Below, one piece after another: positions 705-9,069 of a stretch of 17,200 nt of DNA. The DNA is from Acidobacteriota bacterium (GTDB lineage Bacteria > Acidobacteriota > UBA6911 > JACQSX01). Location: assembly GCA_036507075.1 (NCBI GenBank), contig DASXQR010000049.1:1-17200 (forward strand), in the 5' to 3' direction. The first letter of the stretch is position 1; the number at the start of each line of letters is the position of its first letter. A program made the translations under genes and the position numbers. The notes beneath the pieces were generated by a model, which did not search any database, was not told where the DNA came from, and worked only from the letters and a program-made list of their open reading frames with translations.

Positions 705-2053
705 TGTTTAAGAAAATCCTGATCGCAAACCGGGGTGAAATCGCCCTGCGAGTCATTTCCGCCTGCAAGGAAATGGGCATCGCAACCGTGGCGGTTTATT
801 CCGAAGTCGACCGAAACTCTCTGCATGTCCGGTTCGCCGATGAGGCCGTGTGCATCGGGCCGGCGCACAACTATGACAGTTACCTCAACGTTCCCAGCGT
901 CATCAGCGCAGCCGAGATTACCAACGTGGACGCGATCCATCCCGGGTACGGTTTTCTTGCCGAAAGCGCCTACTTTGCCGAAGTGTGCGAGACCTGTCAC
1001 ATCAGCTTTATCGGTCCGAGCCCGCGAATCATAGACATGATGGGAGAGAAGGCCCAGGCGCGGGAAATCATGCAACAGGCGGGAATTCCCACGTTACCGG
1101 GAACAGGAATCTTAAGCGCAGAGTTAAGCCAGACGACGCGACTGGCGGAGCAAATCGGTTATCCGCTGATCATTAAAGCTTCGGCAGGGGGCGGTGGACG
1201 AGGCATGCGCATCGCGCGCGATGAAACCGACTTGCGCAAGGCGCTCGATCACGCGCAGAGCGAGGCGGCCAGCGCGTTCGGCTCATCACGGGTCTACCTG
1301 GAAAAGTACCTTTCCACGCCGCGCCACATTGAATTTCAGGTGCTGGCCGACAGCCACGGAAACGTCATCCACCTGGGAGAGCGCGAGTGCTCGATCCAGC
1401 GCCGCCATCAAAAACTGCTGGAAGAATCTCCTTCCGTTGTGGTCACCCCCGAAATTCGGCACTCGCTCGGCAAGAAGGTCACTGACGCAATGCGCAAGAT
1501 CGGCTACGTGAGCGCGGGAACGGTCGAATTTCTGTTCGATTCCTCCGGGCAGTTCTATTTCATCGAAATGAATACGCGCGTGCAGGTCGAACACCCCGTA
1601 ACCGAGATGATTACCGGAGTAGACATTGTGAAGGAGCAGATTCGCATCGCCGCGGGCGAGCGACTGCAGTACCATCAGGAAGACATCGAGTGGCGGGGCC
1701 ACAGCCTGGAATGCAGGATTAACGCCGAAGATCCGAAGACGTTTGCGCCCTCTCCCGGCCGCTTATCGGCGTTCAATCCACCGGGCGGACCGGGAGTGCG
1801 TGTGGACACGGCAGCATACTCGGAATATGAGATTCCTCCCCATTATGATTCTTTGATCGCCAAGCTGATCGTGCATACACCGAGCCGGGAAGAGAGCCTG
1901 CGGCGCATGAAGCGCGCCCTGGATATGTTCGTGATTCGGGGAGTGAAGACGACCATTCCCCTTCATCAGGAGATCCTGAGCGACCCGGATTTCATACGCG
2001 GAAATATGAGCACCGCTTTTATGGACGAATTTCGCAAAAACTTCCCAAAGTAG
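704..2053 (+). CDS. accC: Acetyl-CoA carboxylase biotin carboxylase subunit
   Basis: [58 protein letters not shown] and RINAEDP motifs. TGATG overlap with accB. Confidence 0.98.
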
Positions 2054-2673
2054 TGTTACTTCCTCCGGTTTATCCGATCACTGACCCTCTTGTGGCGGGA
2101 GTCCCTACGCACGCAGAACTGATATCCAGGCTGCTGCGCGGAGGCGCCACCTGGATTCAGATCCGCGAAAAGAAACTCTCGGATGATGCGCTGCTGGCGC
2201 AACTGAAGCCGGCCCTGGAGCGGCTGGAATCGGGAATTTCGCTGATCATCAATGATCGCGTGGGACTGGCCGCCACGGCCGGAATCGCCGGAGTGCACCT
2301 GGGGCAGGACGATGCCCCGGTGGCACAGGCCCGAGCGGCGCTGCCCAAAGCCATCATCGGAATTTCGACCCACAGCCTCGAACAGGCCCTCAGGGCCGCG
2401 CAACTGCCGGTGGATTATGTTTCCATCGGCCCGGTTTTTCCCACTACCACTAAGACCGGCAACCCGCCACTGGGGTTGGAAGTGGTTCGCAGGGTGCGCA
2501 GTGTGGTCGCCAAGCCGCTGGTAGCTATAGGGGGCATCTCGCCGGCCAATGCGGCGCAACTCTGGAAGCTGGGAGTTGAAACCGTGGCTGTGGTTTCCGA
2601 CATCATGCGCAGTGCAGACATGGAAGGACGCGTGCGGCGCTATCTTCAACTCTGGAGCGACCTTCATGCTTGA
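2053..2673 (+). CDS. thiE: Thiamine phosphate synthase
   Basis: QIREK, LIINDR, GVHLGQDD, IGISTHS, IGPVFPTTTK and PLVAIGGI motifs. GTG start overlaps the accC stop (TAGTG). Confidence 0.93.
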   Translation: MLLPPVYPITDPLVAGVPTHAELISRLLRGGATWIQIREKKLSDDALLAQLKPALERLESGISLIINDRVGLAATAGIAGVHLGQDDAPVAQARAALPKAIIGISTHSLEQALRAAQLPVDYVSIGPVFPTTTKTGNPPLGLEVVRRVRSVVAKPLVAIGGISPANAAQLWKLGVETVAVVSDIMRSADMEGRVRRYLQLWSDLHA

Positions 2674-3256
2674 TATCGTTCTGCTCGAAAGAGACGGAAA
2701 TCATTTCTTCTACTTCGAGGAGAAGTCCCGCGAAGAGGTAAACGATCCCATCACGCCTAGTTTTAGGGCGCGGGTGAAGCGAAAACTGAAGAAAGCCCAC
2801 CAGGCGGTGGAGCAGCGGCTCTCGCTCGACGAACGCCTCTGCTCGCATTTGCGCTTCCATGATGAAGCTGTCCTTCACGCTCCCACGAGCTTTTCAGAAG
2901 AGCGGACAGCGAAATTATTCTTAAGTTTCGTCGAAGAGTGTGTTAAAAAACATCGTAGATGGGCACTGGCGGATGGGATTCTGGCGGTTTTCGGGACCGC
3001 TCTCGTCTGGGTACCCGGGCCGAACGTCTTCTTTCTGTATCCCGCCCTGCGCGCTTTGGGACACTATCACGCCCAGTCTGGGGGCTCACGGCACCTGAAT
3101 CCAGGCGGGCCGTCAGTGCGATCCTGTTCCTTGCTGGATGACTTTTCGACTTTGGCGCCGGATAAGATGCTGCACAGGGCTGAACTGATTGAAAAGGAGT
3201 TTGGGTTTACACAATTGCGTGACTTTCTGAGAAAAAAATATGCCCTTGTCTTGTGA
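2666..3256 (+). CDS. Hypothetical membrane-associated protein resembling the mitochondrial K+/H+ exchange-related (Mit_KHE1-like) family
   Basis: ATG 2666 overlaps the thiE end by 8 nt. Basic patch KKHRRW, a hydrophobic hairpin, then VPGPNVFFLYPALRALGHYHA..G..HL, similar from memory to the PxxPN.PxFY..YR...H..A..G..HL motif of Mit_KHE1. Confidence 0.6.
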   Translation: MLDIVLLERDGNHFFYFEEKSREEVNDPITPSFRARVKRKLKKAHQAVEQRLSLDERLCSHLRFHDEAVLHAPTSFSEERTAKLFLSFVEECVKKHRRWALADGILAVFGTALVWVPGPNVFFLYPALRALGHYHAQSGGSRHLNPGGPSVRSCSLLDDFSTLAPDKMLHRAELIEKEFGFTQLRDFLRKKYALVL

Positions 3257-3926
3257 ATTCCTTCGTACCGTGTCTCTGTTTGAGAGTCTTTCAGAGCTGG
3301 AACTGAAAGAAGTGATGAAGGTCTTTAAAGAACAGGAGTTCAAAAAAGGCGACATCATCCTGATGGAGGAAGATACCAGCAAATACATGTACATCGTCCT
3401 GGACGGACGCGTTAAAGTTGCCCGGCTCCTGCCGAGCGGCAAGGAAATGATCCTGGCGTTCCACGAAAAGGGCGATTACTTCGGCGAGATGTCTTTGATC
3501 GACGGCGGCACAACTCCGGCCACCGTCACCGCCATGAGTCCCACCAACATCGCATTTGTGGGAAAGAAAGACTTCACGCACAGCCTGCTGATCCACCCGA
3601 AGGTCAACTATGCCATGCTTACCATGCTCTGCACCCGCTGCCGGGATGCGTGGACGCAGATTGAAGTTCTTACCTTTAATAACGCGGATGCCAGAATCCG
3701 TACCGCGCTGTTTCATCTTTGCCAGAAGAAGGGCGAAAGAACCGCCGACGGGGTTCGCATCAGCCTGCATCTGACCCACAAGGAAATCGCGGATATGACC
3801 GGAATATCCCGCGAAACTGCCACTCGCGTGCTCAACAATCTGCAGCACAAGAATGTTCTCACGGTCGAGACAAAGCACTATATCGTCCACGATCCGGAGA
3901 TGCTGATGACGCCGTTCATGGTGTGA
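3240..3926 (+). CDS. Crp/Fnr family transcriptional regulator
   Basis: cNMP-binding fold motifs (MYIVLDGRVKV, GDYFGEMSL) and C-terminal HTH LTHKEIADMTGISRETATRVL. Confidence 0.95.
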   Translation: MPLSCEFLRTVSLFESLSELELKEVMKVFKEQEFKKGDIILMEEDTSKYMYIVLDGRVKVARLLPSGKEMILAFHEKGDYFGEMSLIDGGTTPATVTAMSPTNIAFVGKKDFTHSLLIHPKVNYAMLTMLCTRCRDAWTQIEVLTFNNADARIRTALFHLCQKKGERTADGVRISLHLTHKEIADMTGISRETATRVLNNLQHKNVLTVETKHYIVHDPEMLMTPFMV

Positions 3927-3957
3927 AAACGGCTCCGGCAACATGAAAGTTCGGTAA

Positions 3958-4003
3958 CTTGGTGCCTTGGTGGTTAAAGAATTTCAACCACTAAGGCACC
4001 AAG
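3958..4003. repeat. 18-bp inverted repeat (hairpin) after the Crp gene; possible terminator or palindromic repeat element
   Basis: CTTGGTGCCTTGGTGGTT (3958-3975) and AACCACTAAGGCACCAAG (3986-4003): 17/18 Watson-Crick pairs plus one G-U. No U-tract follows. Confidence 0.8.
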
Positions 4004-4051
4004 CCAGATTCCGAAATCTCTCCTGTAAGTGCCATGGCGGCTGAAGGTTAA

Positions 4052-4066
4052 CGGCAATTTTTGCCG
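4052..4066. promoter_or_regulatory. Palindromic putative regulator site CGGCAATTTTTGCCG
   Basis: CGGCAA-TTT-TTGCCG; same 15-bp pattern as TGACATTTTTTGTCA at 7354-7368. Confidence 0.5.
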
Positions 4067-4085
4067 CTCCAGCTCAGGTGACGTG

Positions 4086-4100
4086 TGGCACCGAATTTGC
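4086..4100 (+). promoter_or_regulatory. Sigma54 (RpoN) -24/-12 promoter for the minor pilin operon
   Basis: TGGCAC-CGAAT-TTGC matches TGGCAC-N5-TTGC with exact GG-N10-GC spacing. Confidence 0.7.
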
Positions 4101-4102
4101 CC

Positions 4103-4118
4103 TGTGAGACACCTCACA
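4103..4118. promoter_or_regulatory. CRP-type binding site TGTGA-N6-TCACA
   Basis: TGTGA-GACACC-TCACA, 10/10 consensus match, directly downstream of a Crp gene with an RE...R recognition helix. Confidence 0.8.
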
Positions 4119-4139
4119 ACGCCGCGCTTGACAAGCCAG

Positions 4140-4145
4140 TAGACT
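4140..4145 (+). promoter_or_regulatory. Sigma70 -10 element (TAGACT) of a putative class II CRP-dependent promoter
   Basis: If the CRP box centre (4110.5) is -41.5, positions -12..-7 fall exactly on TAGACT, retaining the key T-12, A-11 and T-7. Confidence 0.6.
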
Positions 4146-4189
4146 TTTGGCTGCTCGGGGGAGAACCACTCGGGGGAGGACCATGAGAC

Positions 4190-4642
4190 ATGAGAAAAGA
4201 CCGGGGCTTTTCAACAATTGAAATCAGCATTGCCATAGCTATAATCCTGATTTTCTGCGCTATCGCCGTACCGTCCGTCGTTAATCTCACAAAGGAATAT
4301 CGCGTCACAACGGCCGCCGACAGGCTGGCCGGCGAAATTCAGACGGCGCGGCTCCTGGCCGTAAGCCGTAACACGCCTTTTCAACTGGTGATCGACCGCG
4401 CTAATCAGACATTCCAGGTAATCGACCCAGGCGATCCTGCAAATCCGCCGCGCGAACGTAAATCACTCCCGACCGGTGTGACTTTCAAACAGGGTGGCGG
4501 AGGTGACATTCTCACTTTCAACTCTCGAGGAAGCCTTGATCAGCAGAATCCGGCTCTCGTCACGCTAGGCAATGAGGCGCTGGAAATCAACGTTGGTGTG
4601 TCACGCTCGGGCTCGGTAACGACCCGCGCGGCCACCTATTGA
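4190..4642 (+). CDS. Type IV pilus minor pilin, FimT/FimU (GspH-like) family
   Basis: Class III signal peptide RKDRG|FSTIE plus hydrophobic helix, ARLLAVSRN, LTFNSRG, C-terminal VSRSGSV. RBS GGAGGA at 4175-4180. Confidence 0.85.
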   Translation: MRKDRGFSTIEISIAIAIILIFCAIAVPSVVNLTKEYRVTTAADRLAGEIQTARLLAVSRNTPFQLVIDRANQTFQVIDPGDPANPPRERKSLPTGVTFKQGGGGDILTFNSRGSLDQQNPALVTLGNEALEINVGVSRSGSVTTRAATY

Positions 4643-4652
4643 TGGGGAACCC

Positions 4653-5087
4653 ATGAAAACCAAGAAACCCAATTCCAGGGGTTTTACTTTACTGGAATCA
4701 TTAATCGGCATTCTGGTGCTGGCCATCGGACTGCTCGGGCTGGCCCAACTGCTGGGAATCGCCGTTACTCAAAGCGGAGCATCGCGTGAAATGACGATGG
4801 CAACCTCGGTAGCCCTGGACCAGATGGAGCGGCTGAAGGCGCTCTACAACAACGATCTGAAAACCAGCGCCAACTCTGGGGATCTGAGCTCGGGAAACCA
4901 TGGTCCGACGACCGTAAAACTGGTCGCGCCTGCCAACACCAACCAGGGTGATTATGAATTCCTGGTCAGTTGGATCGTGGTGAACAGCGGCCTCGAGAAG
5001 AAAATCACTCTGACGGTGGAACATCCGAGAGTTACGGATGTGGTGCACAACCGCACCGTCCAATTGGTTAATTATTTAGCGCCATGA
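4653..5087 (+). CDS. pilV: Type IV pilus minor pilin, PilV-like
   Basis: SRG|FTLLESLIGILVLAIGLLGLAQL and A...A.DQMERLK, typical of PilV; second in the operon. Confidence 0.8.
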   Translation: MKTKKPNSRGFTLLESLIGILVLAIGLLGLAQLLGIAVTQSGASREMTMATSVALDQMERLKALYNNDLKTSANSGDLSSGNHGPTTVKLVAPANTNQGDYEFLVSWIVVNSGLEKKITLTVEHPRVTDVVHNRTVQLVNYLAP

Positions 5088-5713
5088 AAAATCAAATTCG
5101 TCAACGCGGTTTCACTTTTCTGGAATTGATGGTTTCAATCACTATCCTGGCGATCCTGTCGGGTGGCGTATTTACGTTGTTCAACGCGACCCAGAAGCGC
5201 TACCAGGCCGAAAAAGAGTACGCCGAGACGGTGCAGAACGCCCGTGTCGCGCTGGACCTGCTGAGCCGCTGCATCCGACAGGCGGGAAACAACGAGGATC
5301 CGGCGGCCTTCGCGTTTGAGCCTTTGAGCTACGCGGGAAGCACGCTTACCATCCGCTCCGATCTGACCGGCTCGATTGCCGGAGGCAGCGTGCAACAGGC
5401 GACCGGCGATCCGGACGGCAAGCTGACGGCGGCTTACGAGACGATCACCATCAACTTCAACTCCAGCTCCAAGCAGATCGTGTTGAATGCCGGGTACGGT
5501 GAAGAGATCCTTGCCGAGAATATTAACAAACTGGAATTTAAGTTTTATGACAGCGCTGGAGTGGAAACGGCCACGATGAATGATGTCTCAAAAGTTTCGA
5601 TCACACTGGAGGCTCTGAGCAACGGATCAGATCCTCAATCCGGCAAGCGAAATTCCATTAAGCTGTCATCCAACGTGTATCTTCGCAGTAAAAGCTTTAC
5701 TCCGTTCACATAG
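5084..5713 (+). CDS. pilW: Type IV pilus minor pilin, PilW-like
   Basis: QRG|FTFLELMVSI, QNARVALDLLSRCIRQAG (PilW-type xxR.AG), ILAENI..LEF.FYD. ATGA overlap with pilV. Confidence 0.8.
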   Translation: MKNQIRQRGFTFLELMVSITILAILSGGVFTLFNATQKRYQAEKEYAETVQNARVALDLLSRCIRQAGNNEDPAAFAFEPLSYAGSTLTIRSDLTGSIAGGSVQQATGDPDGKLTAAYETITINFNSSSKQIVLNAGYGEEILAENINKLEFKFYDSAGVETATMNDVSKVSITLEALSNGSDPQSGKRNSIKLSSNVYLRSKSFTPFT

Positions 5714-5727
5714 GACGAGGAGGAAGT

Positions 5728-7182
5728 ATGAATAACCAAAAAGGGGCTGCCCTGATTTTCGTGATGATCGGGCTGGCTCTGCTCACATTAGTGGGGTTGG
5801 CACTGGCTTTTCAGAGCTCCACTGAATACAACATCAGCAATAACTTTATTACTTCGCAGCAGGCCCTGGCCATCGCGGATGGCGGAATCGCCGTCGGCAA
5901 AAGCTACCTGCGCGGAAAAGACTTCAACACCGTGCTGGCCAAGACAACCGATGTTCCGGCATTCGCAAGCGATGCGCAGTCGGAGGAAGGAACTTTCGCG
6001 GGACGCAATCCTATCGGTCGCCTCACCGCCCGCAGCTTCAAATTTGACGCTTACAGCAGCACGCAGACAGCGACCGCCCTTCCCGCGCTCAGTCTTGTAA
6101 CCTCGGCGATTTCGGGTTCAAAGTGGACCGTGCGTGGTTACATCGGCCAGCCCGGCGGGAACGCTTTGGGCGATGGCCTCTATTTTCTTAAGCTTTCGGA
6201 CAACAAAGACGAGGCGGCAATCCAGGATTACACGCATGATATCGACAACAAGGTTTACATGCGATCCGTCGGCGTGCACCGTGTAGACAAGAGCGACAAG
6301 GCGAATGGCTCGGGACGCACCCAGGCTTCTGTGGCTGTGATTGAAGCGCTCTTCAAGCGCGATCAGAGCTTCAACATCCAATCGCCTTTTGCCGTCCAGG
6401 GACCAAGCGTAAATGCCAGGTTTGACGGCAACTCGTTTGATATTGACGGGCGCAATTACAACGGTCTTACGCCGGACCAGATTCGAGCGGGTGGCGGAAA
6501 ACCTTCGGATATTGGCGCAGTGCCGGGCATCGGCGGCATCAACGACACTGGCTCCGGTCCTCTGACCGATTCCATCACTTCGGCCCTCAGCGGCAATCAG
6601 GGAGACAACATCAAGGGTGTGGACGCGAACGGAGTACCCGTCACTCCGGCAGTCGGTGACATTACGTCAGGGGTGAAAAGCGGTGGTGATTCCGCGAATG
6701 TGCTGGATCCGAACTGGATCGGCAATTTTATAGATCTGATTGGGGGCATCGGGGATATCACGTACAACGGCGACACGACCCTGAGCGGTAGCGGCATCAC
6801 TCTAGGTACGGATGCCGACCCAAAGCTCACTATTGTCAACGGTGATCTCCATGTATCCGGCAGTGGCGGCGGCGCTGGTGTTTTGATCGTCACTGGCAAT
6901 ATGGATTACCAGGGATCTTTCGACTTCAACGGCGTCATCATCGTTCTGGGCGAAACTCTGGACATCGGCGGAGCAAACAAGAGCATTATCGGAGGTTTGT
7001 TCTATGCGAACCTGGATAAAGACGGGAGCAACTATTCATGGGGTCCCGCGAGTTTTAACATCCACGGCAACAGCAACTTCTATTACCGCAGCGACTCGAT
7101 CAAGATGGGCTGGAGCCTGCTGCCTTTGAAGGTTCTGAGCTGGAGAGAAGTTCCTCCCGAACTCGACAAAGTGGGAAACTGA
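5728..7182 (+). CDS. pilX: PilX-like minor pilin with a long Gly/beta-rich C-terminal domain (copy 1)
   Basis: NQKG|AALIFVMIGLALLTLVG with no Glu5, as is typical of PilX/GspK; ISNNF...QQALAIADGGI; ends LKVLSWRE. Strong RBS GAGGAGG. Confidence 0.8.
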   Translation: MNNQKGAALIFVMIGLALLTLVGLALAFQSSTEYNISNNFITSQQALAIADGGIAVGKSYLRGKDFNTVLAKTTDVPAFASDAQSEEGTFAGRNPIGRLTARSFKFDAYSSTQTATALPALSLVTSAISGSKWTVRGYIGQPGGNALGDGLYFLKLSDNKDEAAIQDYTHDIDNKVYMRSVGVHRVDKSDKANGSGRTQASVAVIEALFKRDQSFNIQSPFAVQGPSVNARFDGNSFDIDGRNYNGLTPDQIRAGGGKPSDIGAVPGIGGINDTGSGPLTDSITSALSGNQGDNIKGVDANGVPVTPAVGDITSGVKSGGDSANVLDPNWIGNFIDLIGGIGDITYNGDTTLSGSGITLGTDADPKLTIVNGDLHVSGSGGGAGVLIVTGNMDYQGSFDFNGVIIVLGETLDIGGANKSIIGGLFYANLDKDGSNYSWGPASFNIHGNSNFYYRSDSIKMGWSLLPLKVLSWREVPPELDKVGN

Positions 7183-7351: not shown

Positions 7352-7370
7352 AGTGACATTTTTTGTCACT
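7352..7370. promoter_or_regulatory. Palindromic putative regulator site AGTGACA-TTTTT-TGTCACT upstream of pilX copy 2
   Basis: Perfect 7-bp arms around a T5 spacer; same pattern as 4052-4066. Confidence 0.55.
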
Positions 7371-7602
7371 CGCTTGATGAATTCCCGTCCAACGGATCGG
7401 CTCGATGCGTTGGAACCCATTGACATATATAGAAAATTGTCTTTGGATTCTGAGTTGTCTTATAACCCCGGGTGCCATAAAGATCCACGCCGACGATTTG
7501 TCGTCCGGCTGCGGATCTTGCGGACTAGAATAGACATTGCCAACACCATGGAGACCGGGCAGAACCGTTAGTCGGCTTGCCGCGATCTCCAACGAGTAAA
7601 TT

Positions 7603-9069
7603 ATGATGTATAGAAACTCGGCAAATAACCAAAAGGGCGCGGCGCTGATCTTTGTGATGATCGGCTTGGCGCTTCTCACCCTGGTGGGAATTGCGATGAC
7701 TTTCCAGGCGTCCACTGACTATAACATCAGCAATAACTTCATCACCGCGCAGCAGGCGCTGGCCATCGCGGATGGCGGCATCAACGCGGGCAAGGCGTAC
7801 CTGAAAGGGAAAGACTTTTCCGATGTCCTCGCAAGAACGAGCGATGTTCCCGCGTATACGTCCGAAGCGCAGCCTATAGAAGGAACGCTGGCGGCTCGCA
7901 ACCCCATTACGCGACTGACCGCGCGCACCGCCAAATTCGACAGCTACAGCACCGTGCAATCTCCCACTGCTCTTCCTGTCCTGGGAGGCGCGACGCAGGT
8001 GCTGTCCGGATCCAAGTGGGTCGTCAAAGGCATTATCGGTCAACCGGGAGGCACGCCTTTAGGCGATGGGCTGTTCTTTGCCAAGCTGACTGATAACAAT
8101 GACGAGGTCGGCGTGCAAAACTATAGCGTCGACATCGACCACAAAGTTTTTCTGCGATCGATCGGAGTCCACCGGGTCTTCCAGAGCGACAAGGCGAGTG
8201 CGGCAGGCAAGACCCAGGCGTCTGTGGCCGTTATTGAAGCCCTGTTCAAGCGCGATATGAGCTTCAACATCAAGTCGCCGTTTGCGCTCGAAGGGGAGAA
8301 CGCGGGCGCGACCTTCTCGGGAGACTCGTTCACTATCGATGGCCGCAATTACAACGGCCTCACGCCGGAGCAGGCTCGCTCGGGCGGCGGAAATCCTTCC
8401 TGGGTCGGAGCGGTTCCAGGAATCGGGACCATGTATGACGGCGCCAATGGATTGGCGGACGAATCCATCAAGGGCAGCCTGTCCGGCAACCAGAACGACA
8501 ATGTTAAAGGCGTGGATCCCAACGGAATTCCGGCATCGCCGGCAGTCTCCGATACCACAGACAGCGTAAAGTCCGGAGGGGATTCCGCGCATGTGCTGGA
8601 TCCCAACTGGGTCGGTAATTTCGTCAATCTCGTCAAGGGGATCGCGGATTACAAGTATCCGGGTGGAACCAATTTGAGTGGCTCCGGCGCCGTGCTTGGA
8701 ACGGATGAGGATCCCAAGATCACTTATGTGGATGGCGACCTGAGCATCTCCGGCAGCGGGGGCGGGTCCGGCGTGTTGATCGTTAAAGGGAATCTCGATT
8801 ATCAGGGATCGTTCGATTACACCGGCGTCATCATCGTCCTTGGCGGCAATCTCGATATGGGCGGCGCCAACAAGTCAATCGTCGGCGGACTCTTCCTGGC
8901 AAACTTGCAGAGCAGCGGAAACAACTTCTCCTGGGGTGTCCCTGACTTCACCATCCATGGCAACAGCAACTTTTACTACCGCAGCGACTCGATCAAGCTG
9001 GGCTGGAGCCTGCTTCCCTTGAAGGTCCTGAGCTGGAGAGAAGTTCCTCCTGAGCTGGACAAGAATTAA
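7603..9069 (+). CDS. pilX: PilX-like minor pilin with a long C-terminal domain (copy 2, paralogue of 5728-7182)
   Basis: Colinear with copy 1 along its whole length (NNQKGAALIFVMIGLALLTLVG ... LLPLKVLSWREVPPELDK). An in-frame TAA at 7597 limits the start to 7603 or 7606. RBS is weak. Confidence 0.8.
   Translation: MMYRNSANNQKGAALIFVMIGLALLTLVGIAMTFQASTDYNISNNFITAQQALAIADGGINAGKAYLKGKDFSDVLARTSDVPAYTSEAQPIEGTLAARNPITRLTARTAKFDSYSTVQSPTALPVLGGATQVLSGSKWVVKGIIGQPGGTPLGDGLFFAKLTDNNDEVGVQNYSVDIDHKVFLRSIGVHRVFQSDKASAAGKTQASVAVIEALFKRDMSFNIKSPFALEGENAGATFSGDSFTIDGRNYNGLTPEQARSGGGNPSWVGAVPGIGTMYDGANGLADESIKGSLSGNQNDNVKGVDPNGIPASPAVSDTTDSVKSGGDSAHVLDPNWVGNFVNLVKGIADYKYPGGTNLSGSGAVLGTDEDPKITYVDGDLSISGSGGGSGVLIVKGNLDYQGSFDYTGVIIVLGGNLDMGGANKSIVGGLFLANLQSSGNNFSWGVPDFTIHGNSNFYYRSDSIKLGWSLLPLKVLSWREVPPELDKN

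Follow-up and report, generated by a model that had tools for sequence, protein, structure and literature searches.

The spacer between a crp gene and a minor-pilin operon in the genome of an uncultured Acidobacteriota bacterium is best explained as a Crp-box class II sigma70 promoter, which would form part of a type IV pilus regulon and be bound by the Crp/Fnr-family regulator encoded next to it, in response to a signal that is likely not cAMP; an overlapping sigma54 consensus match is likely incidental. We put the probability of this reading, taken as a whole, at roughly 0.7.

The window, that is, the whole stretch of 17,200 nucleotides that was analysed, is the entire contig C49 of genome G000 (6.1 Mb, 233 contigs). 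Its plus strand reads accB, accC, thiE, a hypothetical gene, crp, a fimT-like gene, a PilV-like gene, a gene in PilW position and two PilX-like genes (Table 1), such that four kinds of minor pilin lie 3' of crp, namely FimT/GspH-like, PilV-like, PilW-position and PilX-like. The hypothetical gene (2666-3256, start uncertain, in an ORF that opens at 2549) has a weak match to PF10173 and lies immediately 5' of crp, which it overlaps. This arrangement is kept in nearly all loci examined, and G007 and G027 retain the hypothetical gene although they lack crp. Elsewhere in the comparison set, pilW has no pilX after it in G001-G003, and at locus L459 (G004:C251) fimT and pilX point away from each other, and the spacer between them has two boxes at a distance of 68 bp. 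Relative to L041, a metagenome locus that is the closest relative (Crp 93% identical), the leader at 4154-4196 carries short tandem duplications, namely two copies of a purine-rich ribosome site and two of ATGAGA; the first ATG of this leader (4183) starts an out-of-frame ORF of 12 codons.

Table 1. Features of the crp-minor pilin region, in coordinates of the window.
Feature	Position	Strand	Basis or remark
Crp/Fnr-family regulator, 228 aa	3240..3926	+	profile matches cNMP_binding and HTH_Crp_2
REP-like dispersed hairpin repeat after crp	3958..4003		about 165 similar loci genome-wide
Decayed second Crp box, GGTGA-N6-GCACC	4077..4092		centre -67.5
Putative sigma54 -24/-12 consensus match, TGGCAC-N5-TTGC	4086..4100	+	at this position in G000 only; -11 is C
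Main Crp box, TGTGA-N6-TCACA	4103..4118		conserved; centre -41.5 relative to the predicted sigma70 start
Predicted sigma70 -10 hexamer, TAGACT	4140..4145	+	predicted +1 about 4152
FimT/GspH-like minor pilin, first gene of the operon	4190..4642	+	profile matches
PilV-like minor pilin	4653..5087	+	TIGR02523, 46 bits, under its cut-off of 52
Minor pilin, PilW position	5084..5713	+	label by gene order; N-methyl motif only
PilX-like protein 1	5728..7182	+	PilX_N match
PilX-like protein 2	7603..9069	+	PilX_N match

A direct read of the sequence found, where the sequence-only reading had placed them, all four motifs on which it had built a promoter switch: the perfect main box, the weaker box-like element upstream, the sigma54 pattern (GG at 4087-88, GC at 4099-4100, predicted +1 at about 4112) and TAGACT, 21 nt past the main box. 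With up to one mismatch, the box pattern has two matches in the window against 0.34 expected, and the sigma54 pattern two against 1.38. The perfect box occurs seven times in the 6.1 Mb genome, and ten other spacings of the same half-sites 0 to 5 times each. No sigma70 -35 consensus is present at 4117-4122, and a sigma70 consensus scan returned no promoter in the spacer; its hits were one within fimT (4218-4245) and another that lies on the minus strand. Three further candidates in the spacer were discarded. First, TTGACA at 4128-4133 has no -10 element at 17 nt to make it a -35, and is found in L041 too but not in G001-G003. Second, a palindrome at 4052-4066, considered as an enhancer, is not conserved in L041 and lies too near the -24 element. 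Third, an IHF-like site matches the consensus only at two mismatches and within the REP-like repeat. This hairpin lies outside the promoter, which it may insulate from read-through, and was the only match when the spacer was used as a DNA query against 41 genomes. The sequencing runs listed for this sequence include no RNA run. Among eight runs, the stretch is identical in X1, which may be the one of origin, and lies in one contig of X2 with seven differing letters in 701, none of them listed in 4077-4145, which is too close to test conservation; X3-X8 are without coverage of the promoter.

The evidence that carries our reading comes from orthologous spacers. We compared 14 fimT regions including that of G000, namely the best 13 of 30 fimT loci together with L041. 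A box (score of at least 15) followed at 21-22 nt by TAnnnT was found in ten of the 14 (G000, L041, G001-G004, G013, G015, G021 and G035); the box score fixes the core letters by construction, and the genomes are kin, so that such counts overstate independence. The hexamer is TAGACT in G000, L041, G001 and G003, TAAACT in G002 and TATAAT in G015, and takes the forms TATGCT, TAGCGT, TACTAT and TAAGGT in the other box-bearing regions. No box with hexamer precedes fimT in G007, G023, G031 or G010, the last of which contributes a fimT-like match. The intervening sequence is poorly conserved, which suggests that selection acts on the spacing itself. The proposal that the box sits at -41.5 and places the -10 on TAGACT is borne out by this constancy, and a class II Crp-activated sigma70 promoter is supported, with the pairing of sites and the start point as predictions. 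In E. coli, class II promoters are described as having the box at -41.5, over the -35 region, with the same consensus as here (PMC5957442).

The same spacing bears on a most improbable alternative, in which Crp would only repress: the box would serve as an operator, placed either on the sigma54 start or on a promoter that works without Crp, and TAGACT would not be an activated -10. It could draw on two facts: the box does cover the predicted sigma54 start in G000, and in the pilB-pilT spacer (L247-L250 and L252; G000-G004) GATAAT lies just 11-12 nt past the box in 5/5 family f1 genomes, which would put the box over the -35, a repressing geometry at pilT. Against it, at fimT the 21-22 nt spacing is maintained in 10/14 regions among letters that are otherwise unlike, nine of the ten box-bearing regions have no sigma54 site to repress, and the -35 position is without consensus. 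At the pilT genes of G013, G015, G021, G025 and G035, TAnnnT lies 21-22 nt past the box.

The sigma54 element fared differently from the box and the -10. A strict sigma54 match in G000 is not usually noise, since 7 of 17 such matches lie between genes and point towards one, whereas eight control spacings gave 1 of 84. A single rpoN is present, and the 25 matches to sigma54-activator domains include 21 strong ones. We therefore weighed a lineage-limited toggle, in which G000 would have gained a working sigma54 promoter (+1 about 4112) atop an ancestral Crp/sigma70 promoter; Crp on the main box, which spans -9 to +7 around this sigma54 +1, would block the former and activate the start at 4152. 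The geometry would make the two complexes mutually exclusive, so any sigma54 holoenzyme that binds 4086-4100 in G000 would be unable to share the spacer with Crp. This alternative also gains from the fimT orthologs of G007 (L462:2378) and G023 (L463:1257), which have a sigma54-type motif and no Crp box, and from the spacer at G000:C210:12056-12091 and its counterpart L354 (G001:C66), where, in front of orthologous genes, 4 nt separate the end of a Crp box from the -24 element of a sigma54 motif. Hence both a sigma54 wiring of the operon and a contact between Crp and sigma54 sites occur in the class; the minor-pilin operon appears, from these motifs, to swap promoter type across it. The C210/L354 arrangement is a conserved juxtaposition and, judged by sequence, a better candidate for a Crp-controlled sigma54 promoter than the fimT spacer.

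Nevertheless, the comparison with relatives speaks against the toggle, which we consider unlikely. Using a scoring matrix built from the intergenic matches of G000 itself, the motif scores 17.0 at G000 fimT, whereas the in-register scores in the nine other box-bearing fimT promoters run from -41.8 to +1.1, with none above 1.4 anywhere within -150 to +60; in L041, GG stands in place of the -12 GC, and the -24 GG is not in register. The G000 match ranks 16th of the 24 intergenic matches, inside the range of in-gene scores (10.4-17.6), and has C at -11. It shares this base with 9 of 15 in-gene matches, whereas A/T is found there in 15 of the 24 intergenic ones. The sigma54 promoter of pilA served as a control, sought with a looser pattern at nine loci, two of them without pilA: it was kept in all seven loci with pilA beside pilR, always with A/T at -11. 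In G000 this locus (L202, G000:C213:18339-27010) comprises pilB with an MshE-type c-di-GMP domain, pilT, pilC, pilS, a convergent pilR and two near-identical pilA genes, and the conserved sigma54 promoter 5' of pilA comes with paired TGAC/TAAC-N7-GTCA sites. The derived PilR-type enhancer pattern TRAC-N7-GTCR has no match with up to one mismatch at 883-4368, with the proviso that the sites of the other 20 activators may differ. As a side observation, the spacer between the two PilX-like genes (7354-7397) contains a perfect TGAC-N7-GTCA and a second look-alike, which resemble the sites 5' of pilA; no correctly spaced sigma54 motif was found 3' of them. A cross-genus check of 60 sigma54 sites (30 of 53 in G001 and 30 of 33 in G002) gave 15 with a nearby G000 ortholog, of which five had the motif in G000. 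Strict sigma54 matches are thus only partly conserved, and pilA is the cleaner control.

The origin of the G000 motif may lie in the weaker CRP-like site at its upstream edge. Such a site is indeed present, as the sequence-only reading had it, but rather than simply weak it is the decayed copy of a second box (NGTGA-N6-TCACN) that is intact in G001, G003 and G002, at 26, 26 and 28 bp from the main box, respectively. It has decayed in G000 (GCACC) and in L041 (ATACC), and the decay is what gives the GCAC of the G000 -24 element. In G003, seven of the ten fixed sigma54 letters already exist, belonging to the second box and the spacer, which also counts against the toggle. In the family ancestor, the promoter was probably tuned by the second box at -67.5, which would then have decayed in the lineage of G000 and L041, and in G000 the decayed half-box together with conserved spacer letters would now happen to spell the sigma54 consensus. 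The second box lies at -67.5 to -70.5, compared with the usual -61.5 or -93.5 described for E. coli (PMC5957442), and our search of the literature found no paper on Crp boxes 26 bp apart. Overall, of the two-polymerase switch that had been proposed, the Crp/sigma70 half is upheld by the shared box and -10, and the sigma54 half fails as a conserved design, being found in 0/9 other box-bearing promoters, L041 included. We regard the match at 4086-4100 as peculiar to G000 at this spot and likely incidental.

The logic of such a toggle is already known. At E. coli glnAp1/glnAp2 and glnHp1/glnHp2, CRP is described as activating the sigma70 promoter and repressing the sigma54 promoter of one operon (PMC1865078). 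There, the promoters are in tandem, with glnAp1 115 bp upstream, and repression is attributed to a site at -51.5 and DNA bending (PMC1865078), whereas in the window the box would directly cover the sigma54 start, and the sigma54 site is not conserved.

Returning to the Crp/sigma70 promoter, its best candidate binder, judged from protein sequence, is the neighbouring Crp. The product of 3240-3926 does contain SRETATR, and its base-reading residues R191, E192 and R196 are conserved in 120, 119 and 120 of the 120 homologs, respectively, in agreement with what had been claimed for its recognition helix; their counterparts in E. coli CRP are given as R180, E181 and R185 (PMC1635313). The pattern SRET..R occurs in just one of the nine Crp-HTH matches of G000, namely this protein; the other eight are all without the Glu/Arg pattern, and five of them read TTR[PS]RV. 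In G021 and G035, the genes form a single cluster, pilMNOPQ-peptidase-accBC-thiE-(hypothetical)-crp-fimT-pilV-pilW-pilX. Conversely, crp is missing from G027 (a single contig) and G007, in which ribD directly follows the hypothetical gene, and no boxes were found before pilM or pilT in G027, G007 or G006, where this crp was not found either (threshold 14.5 for pilM of G027 and 14 otherwise).

That the boxes are real but read by another regulator, be it a Crp-family protein or a Rex-like repressor, with the neighbouring crp a bystander, seems very unlikely to us. What speaks for it are G004 (77% complete) and G005 (92%), which have boxes and no detected ortholog of this Crp, G005 having no Crp-HTH match over cut-off at all; and the reverse case of G023, which has the ortholog and no box at fimT or pilM. 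G031, too, has the Crp and no box before fimT. In G004 and G005, thiE and the hypothetical gene are missing together with crp, which suggests, but does not prove, an assembly gap. Weighing against another reader are the lack of the Glu/Arg pattern in the other eight G000 proteins and the absence of boxes where crp is cleanly missing from its locus. Rex half-sites have an A directly after GTGA. This A occurs in 0 of 78 half-sites here, and PF06971 was not found in G000-G003 or G027, so Rex was dismissed as the reader.

The box likely marks, on sequence grounds, a predicted type IV pilus regulon in related Acidobacteriota. In G000, strong intergenic boxes precede pilM (a perfect box, with TACCCT at +21), pilT and a small GTPase that we take to be mglA, since it adjoins mglB and resembles MglA; others precede two single-domain response regulators, an FHA-GAF-HD-GYP protein and a PleD-type diguanylate cyclase (TACACT at +21). 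After the strong boxes of this genome, TAnnnT peaks at an offset of 21 (5/52, with 0-2 at every other offset), and with a looser box score the same offset has 12/204. Boxes scoring at least 14 were found in relatives at 18 of 30 pilM, 11 of 30 pilT and 6 of 30 mglA loci. At a score of at least 15, sets of 11 genomes per gene, chosen for close kinship or for having this Crp type, gave nine boxes for pilM, nine for pilT and five for mglA, against 0.08, 0.12 and 0.2 in shuffles, figures that, among kin, do not amount to statistical tests; these sets left out G023, with no pilM box, G031, with a weak one (14.0) and none at pilT, and G037, with no pilM match at the threshold. In families f5 and f6, whose Crp is 40-45% identical, a box precedes pilM in 7/18 and pilT in 0/18. 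The positions of the G000 boxes at the diguanylate cyclase (G000:C13:39866) and the FHA-GAF-HD-GYP gene (C192:3532) suggest a link between the regulon and c-di-GMP turnover.

The place of crp relative to these targets was also considered. Contig C116 ends just past pilQ and C49 starts just before accB; a peptidase gene bridges the two sides in G013, G021, G025, G027 and G035, and in G000 only a 44% paralog of it was found. The two contigs are probably adjacent in G000, an order in which crp would lie 3' of the pilM promoter that it is predicted to activate, with possible positive feedback. In the mechanism that we favour, a Crp dimer on the main box would contact sigma70 polymerase as at class II promoters, and the minor-pilin transcript would start near 4152, in step with pilMNOPQ and mglA, the major pilin meanwhile being under sigma54 and PilR.

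The signal to which this Crp responds is probably not cAMP. With both PF00027 and PF13545 over cut-off, the protein belongs to the Crp/Fnr superfamily, and its predicted structure (pLDDT 87.5) has GlxR, NtcA, M. tuberculosis CRP and Clr as top fold matches. Its score against the CRP equivalog NF008732 is 95.8 bits, far below the cut-off of 266. In E. coli CRP, Arg82-Ser83 and Thr127-Ser128 are described as holding cAMP (PMC11253593). The equivalents of these pairs here are T92-P93 and A137-W138, which align with Arg-Ser/Arg-Thr and Thr-Thr/Thr-Asn, respectively, in Clr and M. tuberculosis CRP; E83, equivalent to Glu72, is retained and the other four pocket positions are replaced, such that the protein lacks most of the usual cAMP-holding residues. 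The replacements are largely shared by the 120 homologs: P93 is Pro or Ala in 120/120, T92 is Thr, Ser or Ala in 116/120, W138 and C134 are invariant, and C131, which forms a C131-x-x-C134 motif with the latter within the dimerisation helix (C-helix), is found in 113/120. The Thr/Pro in place of the cAMP-binding Arg/Ser, the invariant Trp and the near-invariant CxxC all point away from cAMP. This is, by score and pocket, not a cAMP-activated CRP/Vfr, though the Arg/Glu/Arg helix is kept. We infer that it would act independently of cAMP, either constitutively or through another ligand or its own cysteines, control by c-di-GMP, as in Clp, and a thiol switch being candidates. Counting against a cAMP-blind regulator, three class III cyclase domains are encoded in G000, and the cell may therefore contain cAMP.

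Regulators with comparable properties are known. DdrI of Deinococcus and SdrP of Thermus are described as cAMP-independent CRPs; DdrI has a bulky aromatic residue, Tyr113, at the position of Ser128, as does the present protein with Trp138, and this tyrosine is said to help fill the pocket, classical CRP sites being bound without cAMP (PMC11253593). Trp138 may fill the pocket of this Crp in a similar manner. DdrI is described as keeping the equivalent of Arg82 (PMC11253593), whereas the clade studied here has lost it and adds the CxxC of the C-helix.

The nearest functional parallel is with Clp of Lysobacter enzymogenes and Xanthomonas, a likeness by description: in a review, this CRP-family protein is described as binding and activating the pilA and pilMNOPQ promoters, with effects on twitching motility, without use of cAMP, and as inhibited by c-di-GMP (PMC8246147). 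Here, in contrast, crp lies inside the pilus locus, with the minor-pilin operon, pilM, pilT and mglA as predicted targets, and pilA keeps a sigma54/PilR promoter. In Synechocystis, SyCRP1 and SyCRP2 provide a second parallel, in that CRP-family proteins are reported to control the minor-pilin operon pilA9-pilA12, SyCRP2 being also without cAMP-binding residues; there, a cAMP-binding and a non-binding paralog are described as acting jointly with a c-di-GMP receptor (bioRxiv 10.64898/2026.03.27.713163), whereas G000 has a single Crp candidate for TGTGA-type sites. Transformation in A. baumannii is reported to require crp (PMC8811193), and the fimU operon of P. aeruginosa to be activated by AlgR (PMC4064291). 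By analogy, the system would be a Crp-activated pilus promoter and regulon comparable to those of Lysobacter Clp and SyCRP1/2. Our literature search, with subscription papers largely outside its reach, found no report of this pilus regulon in Acidobacteriota.

It is tempting to speculate that the Crp clade, with its Trp-filled pocket and CxxC, is a cAMP-blind and possibly thiol-sensing master switch of a Myxococcus-like surface motility, with pilMNOPQ, the tip operon, mglA and the diguanylate cyclase turned on and the internal pilT promoter damped; the operon would swap between Crp/sigma70 and sigma54 control across the class, with sigma54 only in G007 and G023, and G000 would be an intermediate in which both are interlocked. 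Taken together, we hold this scenario to be distinctly unlikely. At the level of our preferred reading, the analysis offers a concrete predicted pair of regulator and site for the type IV pilus genes of uncultured Acidobacteriota. It would split pilus control into two arms, with sigma54 and PilR in charge of the major pilin, and Crp in charge of the assembly machine and the tip. In addition, it draws attention to a Crp clade with at least 120 members, and the altered effector pocket of this clade is the most interesting feature.
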